From the IMG/VR virus record IMGVR_UViG_2684622543_000010: 8,410 nt of DNA; one strand, given 5' to 3'. The notes beneath the pieces were generated by a model that did no database searches, was not told the DNA's origin, and saw nothing but the letters and a program-made list of their open reading frames with translations. Within the stretch, counting starts at the first letter, position 1, and each line of letters opens with the position of its first letter. A program made the position numbers and the translations under genes. Shown one piece after another: positions 1-8,410 of this stretch. The DNA comes from a virus. Its lineage: Duplodnaviria > Heunggongvirae > Uroviricota > Caudoviricetes.

Positions 1-120
1 TCAATGATCGGAAGTATGCCAAATCGTGATCGATTGTGATGCCAAACTGTGATCGGAGATGGATGCCAAATCATGATCGATTCGAATGCCAAACTGCGAT
101 CGATTCAGATGCCATTTTGC
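1..120. repeat. Tandem direct repeat array, ~23-bp period, at least 5 copies (truncated by the left window edge); each unit has an ATGCCAAA box and a TGATCG/CGATCG core
   Basis: Seen directly: ATGCCAAA at 16-23, 39-46, 63-70, 86-93 (degenerate ATGCCAT at 109-115); GATC at 6-9, 28-31, 51-54, 75-78, 98-101 (spacing 22-24 bp). Units overlap the 3' end of the minus-strand ORF ending at 71. Confidence 0.85.
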
Positions 121-815
121 ACACTGAGTACTTTTTAAGCTTTGAAGCTACTCGACCAGCGTTACTATTAGCATTGGTGACGTTGGTTTTTTCAGCTTCT
201 GTTAAGTCTGAATAGTCCAGCTTCCAAGCCTTATTACATTTAATCTGAGCATCGAGAATATCATTTCTGATAGCTGGAGCGTAACCGGATACATCGCTAA
301 TATTCATTAACTCTTTGCACGATAGCATAGGCGCGTTATTGCGTTCAGTGGTCACGTTACCTGCATTCTTCTTACTGGTCACACCACCGTCATTTGTGGT
401 AGCCGTTTTGCCAGTGGCTGCTGAAATATCAGTTTGACCTACGATTGCTTTAAAGTTAATTTCCTGAAAAGTTAGCTGGATACGAAGACCGTTAGAGATA
501 GTAACATCTTTAGAGGCTTTAAAGTTGGTAATAATGGAATCGTCAATTTTAATTCCATCTTTACAGATAACAGAAATAATCTGCTTCTGGTCACGCCAGT
601 TTTCCAGAGTGTCAATGAAGTTTTCTACTAATTGACCCTGACGAGTTAATAATAAGCTTCCTTCATAATTGCATGTTCTGTGTAGTCACCTGCATAGGGC
701 TATCAAATTCCATGTTTTCAGTTGCTGATAAGGTTAAGAAGGCATCTACATTGTCTCTTAAGTGGAAATAGATGCCATCTTTGCCACTGTAACGAAGCTG
801 ATTAGTGTAAATCAT
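71..815 (-). pseudogene. Frameshift-disrupted gene downstream of the tape measure gene (hypothetical tail-module protein): N-terminal 50 codons in one frame (663-815), remaining ~204 codons in the +1 frame (71-685)
   Basis: ATG at 815 with SD AAAGGAG 7 nt upstream; this frame hits TGA at 663-665 after 50 codons ([14 protein letters not shown]...QNMQL). A second frame is open from 685 to the stop at 71-73 with no ATG/GTG/TTG until the GTG at 382 (the track's 71-382 ORF). Both frames are open only between 666 and 685. Could be a true pseudogene, a sequencing indel or recoding. Product not recognisable by eye. Confidence 0.5.
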
Positions 816-823
816 TAAATTCT

Positions 824-875
824 CCTTTGATTTCAAAGGCTTAGTGTATTTTAATCATTTTTAACCAAGCCTTTG
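824..875 (-). promoter_or_regulatory. Mutually exclusive RNA hairpins overlapping the Shine-Dalgarno of the gene starting at 815 (candidate translational control element)
   Basis: Seen directly: CCTTTGA (824-830) / TCAAAGG (833-839) perfect 7-bp inverted repeat, whose 3' arm on the minus-strand RNA contains the SD; AAAGGCTT (835-842) / AAGCCTTT (867-874) is an alternative pairing for the same bases. A further 9-bp inverted repeat CTACGTGAA (907-915) / TTCACGTAG (951-959) lies in the same intergenic region. Function is inference. Confidence 0.25.
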
Positions 876-971
876 ATATATATGTATTTTCTCTGTTAAG
901 CGTGAGCTACGTGAAAAATAATTTTTGGTGTGGGTATTAACTTTGCTTTATTCACGTAGAACACCGTTAAA

Positions 972-7603: not shown

Positions 7604-8266
7604 TTAGCTCAACCTTTGAGCAATCCTGTATGACGTGCTCAGAGGCATTCTGAGAGCATCTGCAATGCACTTAATGGGTTTTCCTTGCCTGTATAGTTTT
7701 ATGAAGCTGTCGAGCGTCTCAGGTGGGTAAATGGTGGGTCTTCCTCTCAAGCCTCCTCTGTTAATGATGGTTAACGGTAATAGCGTGTCACCACAGCAAA
7801 CCGTCTGTGTAATTTCGTGCTTACGTGGTTCTTTTTTAAAAACAACGACTGCACTAGGAAACGGTGAACGAATAGTAAGCCCGTTATGGCCTGCTGGTGG
7901 AAGGTATTTAACTGCACGATGAAGAATACGGATTTCATGACAGTGGTTATTGCTGTAAATGTGCCTAAGCCAGTAGCTGGTGTTGGCTCTATGCGGTATC
8001 AGGAAAGCTACTAAATCCGCTTCAGACGCTTTTAAGAGGAACGACGGAATATCGCTGTACGGCAGGTTACAGAAGACCTTTTCACTAACCCATGATTGAC
8101 GGCTTATATCATTGGTGAATCGTGGTAACAGCGTGTCATGCTCAGTTGCAGCACCATCTAGCGTAAAACCAAATTCACGGTGTAAGTTCTTAAATAACAA
8201 CAATGGAGTTCTCCAGTAATCAGAACCCCCATGATGTTTCCCGATTAAAATATGCTCAATTGACAT
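7604..8266 (-). CDS. Phage Dam-family (T1/HP1-type) N6-adenine DNA methyltransferase homolog with a C-terminal resolvase-type helix-turn-helix extension (220 aa)
   Basis: Family hallmarks in order: DYWRTP, FTLDGAAT, a catalytic-motif position reading NLPYS (canonical is NPPYS), and SPFPSAVVVF. The C-terminal ~60 aa (RGGLRGRPTIYPPETLDSFIKLYRQGKPIKCIADALRMPLSTSYRIAQRLS) resembles the GRP-linker plus HTH of serine recombinases (Hin/resolvase type). No SD upstream of ATG 8266 (AT-rich leader). Motifs recalled from memory, not searched. Confidence 0.8.
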   Translation of the reverse strand: MSIEHILIGKHHGGSDYWRTPLLLFKNLHREFGFTLDGAATEHDTLLPRFTNDISRQSWVSEKVFCNLPYSDIPSFLLKASEADLVAFLIPHRANTSYWLRHIYSNNHCHEIRILHRAVKYLPPAGHNGLTIRSPFPSAVVVFKKEPRKHEITQTVCCGDTLLPLTIINRGGLRGRPTIYPPETLDSFIKLYRQGKPIKCIADALRMPLSTSYRIAQRLS

Positions 8267-8296
8267 AAGAAATAAAAAATTTTATTGCAATCACTC

Positions 8297-8323
8297 TTGA
8301 CAAGGTTTACTCTCTTTTAAGAT
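8297..8323 (+). promoter_or_regulatory. Candidate sigma70-type promoter reading rightward out of the window, overlapping the left arm of the inverted repeat
   Basis: Perfect -35 TTGACA (8297-8302), 15-bp spacer, -10 TAAGAT (8318-8323). The spacer is short, so this is weak evidence. Confidence 0.2.
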
Positions 8324-8389
8324 AAGAGATACTTAACAGGCTTTCTAAACGGATATCCTTTCTGGAATATCTATCTCTTATCTTAAAAG
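8314..8389. repeat. 18-bp perfect inverted repeat (CTTTTAAGATAAGAGATA / TATCTCTTATCTTAAAAG) with a 40-bp spacer containing the palindrome GGATATCC
   Basis: Seen directly: arms at 8314-8331 and 8372-8389 are exact reverse complements; spacer 8332-8371 contains GGATATCC (8351-8358) flanked by two CTTTCT copies. Lies 48-123 bp upstream of the methylase-HTH start codon. Confidence 0.85.
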
Positions 8390-8410
8390 TCTTTACAGAT
8401 ACTTTAAAGA

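Follow-up and report, generated by a model that had tools for sequence, protein, structure and literature searches.

A GATC-free chromosomal island of Shigella and Escherichia coli with a site-avoidance signature common to Felix O1-like phages

The stretch of DNA analysed here, referred to as the window, comprises 8,410 nucleotides catalogued among the Caudoviricetes in IMG/VR (record IMGVR_UViG_2684622543_000010). It raises the question of why the tetranucleotide GATC is confined to five evenly spaced positions at one end, and how its absence elsewhere can coexist with a gene for an adenine methylase of the Dam family, a combination which a preliminary description, made from the letters alone, had called paradoxical. 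The answer reached here is that positions 125-8410 represent most of an island of Shigella and E. coli, whose DNA has probably come under the site-avoidance selection that also acts on the virulent Felix O1-like phages (Ounavirinae). The five GATC sites are part of an unrelated insertion sequence (IS) of the IS21 family that cut the island, and not of the GATC-free element.

An exact search located GATC at positions 6, 28, 51, 75 and 98 of the window only, in agreement with the earlier scan by eye, which had confined it to five repeats within 1-101. Positions 122-8410 contain no GATC across 8,026 known bases, i.e. those left when a run of 263 N at 6658-6920 is subtracted. For the same interval, 28.6 occurrences are expected from base composition (the GC content of the window is 39.4%), 25.6 from a dinucleotide model and 30.2 from a Markov model of maximal order. 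When 125-8410 was shuffled 500 times with its dinucleotides preserved, GATC turned up 24.3 times on average (sd 4.7) and never fewer than 12 times. The initial rough estimate of 20-30 chance occurrences is thus matched by a computed expectation of 24-30, with none observed outside the repeats. The tetranucleotide count against a Markov background, which had been proposed as a check, was run and places GATC first for depletion among the 256 tetramers of the window. GGCC, reported earlier as present, was counted 9 times, against about 9-12 expected.

The origin of the segment was established by sequence comparison. A Shigella sonnei contig, L017, matches window positions 123-8410 with 99.97-100% identity, and the segment 125-8410, with 0 GATC and a phage-type avoidance of palindromes, forms most of an integrative island of about 11 kb, present in this S. 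sonnei copy at the wrbA/ymdF site. The run of N corresponds to 461 bp in L017 (7075-7535), so that its true length is not 263; the hidden stretch is part of the replication-initiator gene and is also GATC-free. E. coli chromosomes carry copies of the island of about 11 kb, about 91% identical to the window.

The depletion extends to the entire island family. Ten copies (the window with L017, and contigs L001, L006-L011, L015 and L016) contain 0 native GATC over about 11 kb each, against 40-50 expected, the only GATCs within island coordinates being located inside IS insertions. Pooling seven islands gives 0 GATC against about 276 expected. GATC is present at a normal level in the host flanks, where the observed and expected numbers are 129/138, 79/72, 66/61 and 82/60, and 424/394 when pooled. 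Along L017, 14 GATC are found in a 3.4 kb flank containing rut genes and then none at 3381-14070 (10.7 kb), the depletion ending at host DNA on one side and at an insertion sequence on the other. The possibility, raised in the preliminary description, that the depletion was limited to the window does not hold, as it reaches the other end of the island.

Island copies diverge by 9-22% in alignable DNA, which allows the gain of sites to be evaluated. For each pair, the observed substitutions were placed randomly in one copy, keeping the from-to base spectrum. A mean of 5.4-15.0 new GATC per pair was obtained, at most 0.6% of the runs gave none, and the real partner contained 0 in 8 of 8 pairs. 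Since the diverged copies are GATC-free, although random change makes 5-15 sites, selection against GATC in the island family is ongoing and simple inheritance is ruled out.

The same signature is found in a defined group of phages. Among phages, the window is matched solely by Felixounavirus and its relatives. No GATC occurs in the 85.8 kb of Felixounavirus garuso, where 303 are expected, nor in the initial 50 kb of Mooglevirus Mordin, where 176 are expected. Absence of MboI/GATC sites in the genus Felixounavirus has already been published (PMC4690856, PMC5477317), and DNA of phage VpaE1 is cut by methylation-sensitive enzymes.

In the window, the islands and the phages alike, GATC is the most depleted word and the sole tetramer at zero, yet avoidance extends to many other words. 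Garuso is without 27 of the 64 hexamer palindromes, and 23 of those are also at zero in 55.7 kb of pooled islands. Observed/expected ratios of hexamer palindromes in phage and islands are correlated (Spearman 0.76, or 0.72 without GATC-containing words), against 0.15-0.20 for host flanks, and tetramer profiles of phage and islands correlate with r = 0.90, against 0.07 and 0.23. Similarly, CCWGG occurs 3 times in garuso where 75 are expected and 3 times against 72 in the seven islands; the corresponding figures are 6/123 and 15/119 for CCNGG, and 3/123 and 8/119 for GGNCC. GANTC, GTNAC, CTNAG, GCNGC, ACNGT and TCNGA are at or above expectation. The avoided words thus take in the sites of well-known enterobacterial restriction systems, namely EcoRII (CCWGG), SsoII (CCNGG) and Eco47I/SinI (GGWCC), and the pattern has the look of unmodified phage DNA evading restriction. 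In the window copy itself, the 23 palindromes missing from garuso that do not contain GATC occur 3 times in 125-8410, against 20.0 +/- 4.4 in shuffles, and CCWGG is found 0 times against 9 expected in the nearly identical L017. GATC is the sharpest part of a broader, motif-specific purge common to island and phages, and the likeness to coliphages pointed out in the preliminary description holds, the depletion being an avoidance of the enterobacteriophage kind.

Island and phages are also linked by direct homology. The Dit-like gene is 87-95% identical at the nucleotide level to the garuso gene following the tape-measure gene; in phage Bas63 the gene after the tape-measure gene is the tube initiator gp18 (PMC12609058). 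The ends of the tape-measure gene show 80-86% nucleotide identity to garuso, while the proteins, 726 aa in the island and 735 aa in the phage, are 33% identical overall. This pattern fits a protein docking into helper tails but differing centrally. In addition, the 144 bases 5' of the methylase gene, a non-coding region at 8267-8410 (plus strand), have a likewise non-coding counterpart, 72-86% identical, in 253 Ounavirinae records (Felixounavirus, Mooglevirus and relatives); in garuso and Mordin the matching region lies within a divergent intergenic stretch. The region contains a TTGACA-N15-TAAGAT site (8297-8323) which resembles phage early promoters and is the single early-promoter-like site found. 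The Mooglevirus early-gene 5' leader motif AACAATCCTAAACTGGAG is absent from the window. The region 8267-8410 may serve as a control element that responds to phage, or may be bound by the helix-turn-helix (HTH) domain of the methylase. A 13-bp inverted repeat, AAGATAAGAGATA / TATCTCTTATCTT, was also observed in it, at 8320-8332 and 8372-8384.

A common selection on island and phages could operate as follows. Like phage DNA, island DNA would regularly enter new cells unmodified, or replicate fast and in an under-methylated state. The likeliest route would be packaging in Felixounavirus-type particles as a satellite, in a manner comparable to the PLE of Vibrio cholerae. Sites for common enterobacterial nucleases would then be selected out of the island. 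For GATC, the agents could be MboI/DpnII-type enzymes tolerated by a Dam+ host and/or MutH acting on unmethylated GATC; SeqA is also a candidate and, more speculatively, a GATC-directed nuclease which would destroy host DNA during infection. General avoidance of restriction or other nucleases is rated likeliest because one cause covers all purged motifs.

The gene content agrees with the satellite route: relatives of the window copy carry a large serine recombinase at one end, the island has its own replication initiator, and no capsid or packaging genes are found. Shared regulatory DNA, shared tail genes and island-length contigs breaking at host junctions are at most indirect signs of helper-triggered excision, replication and packaging. 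A stronger proposal can be advanced tentatively, with somewhat less than even confidence: the island could be an undescribed, PLE-like element of Escherichia, Shigella and Salmonella that lives on virulent Felix O1-like phages as a satellite or as an anti-phage parasite. With the tape-measure and tube-initiator proteins that it encodes, it would commandeer or disrupt the assembly of helper tails, and it would copy the complete restriction-avoidance signature of the helper, zero GATC included, through sharing its route between cells.

Several points weigh against this account. Excision, replication and packaging of the island during Felixounavirus infection are predictions of it, and no relative of the island was found in the viral contig collection. 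No GATC-specific nuclease was detected among the island proteins with Pfam, PHROG, NCBIfam and PADLOC. The substitution simulation ignores coding constraints on the positions of change. Finally, the window copy is degraded, so that present-day selection on it cannot be judged: on the evidence of an IS insertion, a frameshifted tube-initiator gene and an unusual NLPY methylase motif, the Shigella copy is visibly decaying.

The alternative which survives best, although it must be considered unlikely, attributes the loss of GATC to the Dam pathway only: in fast-replicating, under-methylated island or phage DNA, GATC sites would be counter-selected because they expose it to nicking or cutting by MutH, to SeqA binding or to mismatch repair, and restriction enzymes would play no part for this word. 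That GATC alone among tetramers reaches zero agrees with such a cause, as does the fact that the hosts of island and phages are Dam+ enterobacteria. The explanation is classical (McClelland 1984; Deschavanne and Radman 1991, the latter as cited in PMC5014478), GATC sites of phiX174 engage mismatch repair (PMC5014478), and the pathway can act together with restriction avoidance. However, the purge also spans CCWGG, CCNGG, GGNCC and about 23 palindromes without GATC, which are untouched by Dam, MutH and SeqA; a single cause is more economical, and general restriction or nuclease avoidance is therefore favoured over a pure Dam effect. Moreover, phiX174 with 20 added GATC sites showed no clear fitness cost, and the driver has been called unresolved (PMC5014478), while phage T1 thrives in the same hosts with 235 GATC, though with its own Dam. 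Of the earlier suggestion of avoidance of restriction or of Dam/MutH/SeqA effects, avoidance stands and a pure Dam/MutH/SeqA effect is less favoured, given the many other motifs purged. A contribution of the Dam pathway to the extreme GATC value could nevertheless be present.

Improbable is a discrimination of self from non-self by motif absence, in which a nuclease of the helper phage or of the island would destroy the host chromosome by cutting at GATC, methylated or not, and would spare phage and island for want of a site; the methylase would mark or prepare host DNA. The totality of the absence (0 of about 300 expected in the phage, 0 of about 276 in the seven islands) fits a lethal penalty for a single site, a methylase of the Dam Pfam family is kept in every island copy despite the lack of GATC, and some variants contain a small HNH-like open reading frame (ORF), whose HNH_3 match is weak (21.9 bits, below the Pfam cut-off). 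On the other hand, no member of the MutH, Sau3AI, DpnI or DpnII families was found in the island proteins scanned, phage proteins being outside the scan, and the parallel purge of other motifs is left unexplained; the idea amounts to speculation. In a bolder version of the satellite proposal, the missing GATC would likewise be a self-mark against a GATC-directed nuclease during infection.

The GATC pattern can be explained without the methylase. The gene (7604-8266, minus strand) encodes an N6-adenine methyltransferase-like protein, conserved in every island copy examined. Its score of 54.6 bits against PF05869 passes the Pfam cut-off of 28.1, T1 Dam scoring 236.5, but against the NCBIfam equivalog TIGR01712 it scores 37 bits and fails the cut-off of 97; identity to T1 Dam is 23%. 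The closest phage enzymes, from Acinetobacter, Staphylococcus and Lactococcus phages, are 32-38% identical, and no methyltransferase is annotated in garuso. The last ~50 residues consist of a GRP arm and a resolvase-type HTH, almost invariant between variants which are only 69% identical; the match of this C-terminal part to HTH_7 (21.9 bits) is below the cut-off, and no significant similarity was found between it and the recombinase HTH. The catalytic motif IV (N/D-P-P-Y/F when intact; codon 68) reads NLPY in the window allele and NPPY or NPPF in 10 of 10 aligned relatives. NLPY is the standard Shigella allele, and the exact allele is found on at least 999 Shigella contigs; from the altered motif, it may be inactive. 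No solved relative of the methylase was found, and an AlphaFold model based on 12 close homologues (pLDDT 39.8) was unusable. A placement of Hia5 and Hin1523, adenine methylases without sequence specificity, in PF05869 was considered and rejected, as they are EcoDam-like according to PMC3299994.

Membership of PF05869 says little on specificity in this case, as phage T1 has its own PF05869 enzyme and yet a normal GATC count of 235. The paradox noted initially mostly dissolves, the assignment to a distant PF05869 member which fails TIGR01712 being weak evidence for GATC specificity. The two ways out offered with it, a different specificity or an inactive enzyme, are both plausible, in view of the low identity to T1 Dam and of NLPY, and neither is proven. 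As the island DNA contains no GATC for it, methylation of GATC within the island is probably not what the enzyme does.

An assembly of the island from GATC-free phage DNA so recent that sites have had no time to arise, with no selection acting, is very improbable. GC content, word usage and two genes are indeed shared with GATC-free phages, but copies 9-22% diverged have not gained one GATC against 5-15 expected per pair, so that passive inheritance is contradicted for the island family by the substitution simulation. Moreover, for most of the island, namely the replication initiator, the methylase and the small ORFs, no homologue was detectable in the phage genome, in a comparison which left out the recombinases. 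A legacy is the likely state of the clonal, degraded S. sonnei copy taken by itself: in this decaying copy the absence of GATC is likely to be the legacy of past selection.

The five GATC sites remain to be placed. Positions 1-124 (plus strand) form the terminal region of an ISSso4-like insertion sequence of the IS21 family, with five direct repeats of about 23 bp and GATC in each. Such multiple terminal repeats are characteristic of the IS21 family. Window 1-127/134 is matched at 96-98% in 1,351 of 5,426 complete E. coli genomes, at up to 34 places per genome, and the stretch from 1 to about 127 is also matched on Shigella plasmids. In contigs L002 and L003 the matching stretch is located directly upstream of istA/istB, whose annotation there is IS21-like, ISSso4 family; the opposite end of the element in L002 has three inverted GATC repeats. 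ISEc12, a second IS21-like element, shows an identical 23-bp GATC periodicity. Island homology starts at window 122-125, and intact E. coli islands have no such array, the recombinase gene directly following the tube-initiator gene. Since the array is matched in complete copies beside istA/istB and island homology begins only at 122-125, the array is not an origin or control region of the GATC-free DNA.

An enzyme of GATC specificity acting on the 1-101 array as a regulatory or origin element of the same unit, as the resemblance of five evenly spaced sites beside the island to a methylation-controlled array might suggest, is thus virtually without chance and already refuted by the anatomy. The array is one end of an IS21-family element that occurs in many copies, and hundreds of genomes and plasmids which have no island carry it; it is absent from intact E. 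coli islands, and is paralleled by the same periodicity in ISEc12. The earlier idea that the methylase acts only on the repeats has no basis.

The IS ends deserve a remark of their own. In both ISSso4-like elements and ISEc12 (window 1-124; L002 995-1050 and 3500-3625; L009 5482-5619 and 7949-8020) each terminal repeat of about 23 bp contains GATC, with five repeats at the istA-proximal end and three, inverted, at the other. By analogy with IS10 and IS50, this suggests that Dam methylation could control the binding of IS21-family transposases, for which we know of no report.

The order of genes in the island is large serine recombinase, Dit-like protein, tape measure protein, small ORFs, replication-initiator-like HTH protein, N6-adenine methyltransferase and, in most copies, a small serine recombinase. 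No capsid, terminase or DNA polymerase genes were found in the island gene lists examined. The large serine recombinase of the relatives matches PF00239, PF07508 and PF13408; in the window the IS cuts the island before this gene.

All genes of the window copy are on the minus strand. The Dit-like, or tail tube-initiator, gene (122-815) is a pseudogene, detected by tblastn with the L001 protein (261 aa, PF21821 Dit_like) as two fragments, in frames -3 and -1, which correspond to aa 1-49 and 77-255. It shows a frameshift, a deletion of about 27 codons and a truncation by the IS 6 codons before the end. The tape measure protein of 726 aa (972-3152) matches PF20155 (77 bits) and phrog_4036 (4e-93). 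At 3251-3457 lies a small ORF of 68 aa, the position of which is conserved across the island family; it is 53% identical to its L001 counterpart and has no family match in Pfam, PHROG or NCBIfam. The 236-aa protein at 3482-4192 is 100% identical to protein cluster P0121 (S. sonnei, 161 members) and has 3,119 relatives among Escherichia, Shigella and Salmonella; searches against Pfam, PHROG, NCBIfam and PADLOC gave no match, and its label 'transposase' in NCBI records is without family-model support. Five further small ORFs (4668-4973, 5120-5347, 5335-5556, 5556-5876 and 6170-6466) have no family match in the same four collections, and all except 5335-5556 have L001 counterparts 86-100% identical. 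The replication-initiator-like HTH protein (6466-7278), split by the run of N, matches phrog_8102 (9e-11) and phrog_428 (1e-9); its L017 counterpart has 317 aa.

The intergenic gap of 427 bp at 4241-4667 could be a candidate origin or iteron region for the island's replication initiator. A tandem repeat, AAAGGATTCAA x2, is located in it at 4368-4390. In some island variants the small ORFs of the window are replaced by a 90-aa ORF annotated as HNH endonuclease (L008 11032-11304; L009 10986-11258).

Relatives of the methylase gene are present in 184 of 5,426 complete E. coli genomes (about 3%), and four integration sites were found: wrbA/ymdF, tonB/yciI, inside yecE and inside mdtG. Methylase scans, both with a single sequence and with an alignment, detected no relatives in species-representative genomes or viral contigs, and on the sequences compared the island family seems not to reach beyond Escherichia, Shigella and Salmonella. 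At the far end of the island, the gene for the small serine recombinase varies in sequence and strand between copies within conserved flanking DNA (L001 28424-30240 compared with L006 15347-17090). An invertible segment was considered for it and rejected, as alignment shows a replaced gene cassette. Two Logan contigs of 11.1 kb, L015 and L016, were likewise considered as circles and rejected, their ends being 50-100 bp inside host yecE. Such island-length contigs, with breaks at both junctions, are expected if occupied and empty or excised sites coexist in a sample.

That enterobacteriophages avoid GATC is a classical finding, and the complete lack of it in Felixounavirus has been published; the observation is not new by itself, and after 40 years it has no agreed cause. 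The new point is a chromosomal island with the same signature, copied by the host in a Dam+ cell and keeping zero GATC, with an unchanged set of missing motifs, across 9-22% divergence. It is difficult to account for a signature kept despite copying by the host if the island does not regularly exist in the form of phage-type DNA. E. coli and Shigella would thereby harbour a candidate satellite of a virulent phage, found in about 3% of the complete E. coli genomes. Searches of the literature for Felixounavirus or Ounavirinae satellites, for a serine recombinase at wrbA/ymdF and for tape-measure satellites found no published description of the island family or of its signature, which is not proof that it is undescribed. 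Word-avoidance fingerprints are a possible means to pair orphan islands with helper phages, and an 11-kb GATC-free island is an engineerable test bed for the selecting agent, be it MutH, SeqA or restriction enzymes riding on host Dam.

Among known systems, T1 Dam, the prototype of PF05869 and GATC-specific in the older literature, belongs to the same Pfam family as the island enzyme, and its D-x-W-x-TP, LD-AA and NPPY motifs succeed one another as they do in the island relatives; the island enzyme differs from it in a distinct C-terminal part ending in a resolvase-type HTH. The avoidance of GATC in phiX174 and T7 is likewise a strong or total lack in Dam+ hosts whose own DNA is normal, with a debated driver. 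In the island, unlike these phages, the carrier is a chromosomal element of 11 kb mostly copied passively by the host, and the set of avoided motifs is wider. With the Ounavirinae the island shares 39% GC, zero GATC and the identical missing palindromes, CCWGG, CCNGG and GGNCC, but it measures 11 kb and not 86 kb, is devoid of capsid, terminase, polymerase and tRNA genes, and carries serine recombinases, a replication initiator and a methylase, for which garuso has no annotated counterparts. As an Ounavirinae prophage or remnant it would be without the core modules, only the tape-measure and tube-initiator genes having phage counterparts.

Satellite P4 is also an integrative E. coli element of about 11 kb, dependent on a helper myovirus, and its GATC is partly depleted (14 against 40-45 expected); it differs in its tyrosine integrase, primase, 49.5% GC and remaining GATC sites, and has no homology to the island. 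The closest architectural parallel is provided by the PLE satellites of vibriophage ICP1 in Vibrio cholerae, small islands with a large serine recombinase, their own replication initiator and no capsid genes, tied to a virulent myovirus. By analogy, the island resembles them, including helper-like tail genes and a helper-like promoter region, although we know of no PLE with a tape-measure and tube-initiator pair or with a Dam-family methylase. Induction, replication and packaging by the helper have been shown for PLE, whereas the island is known here from its sequence.

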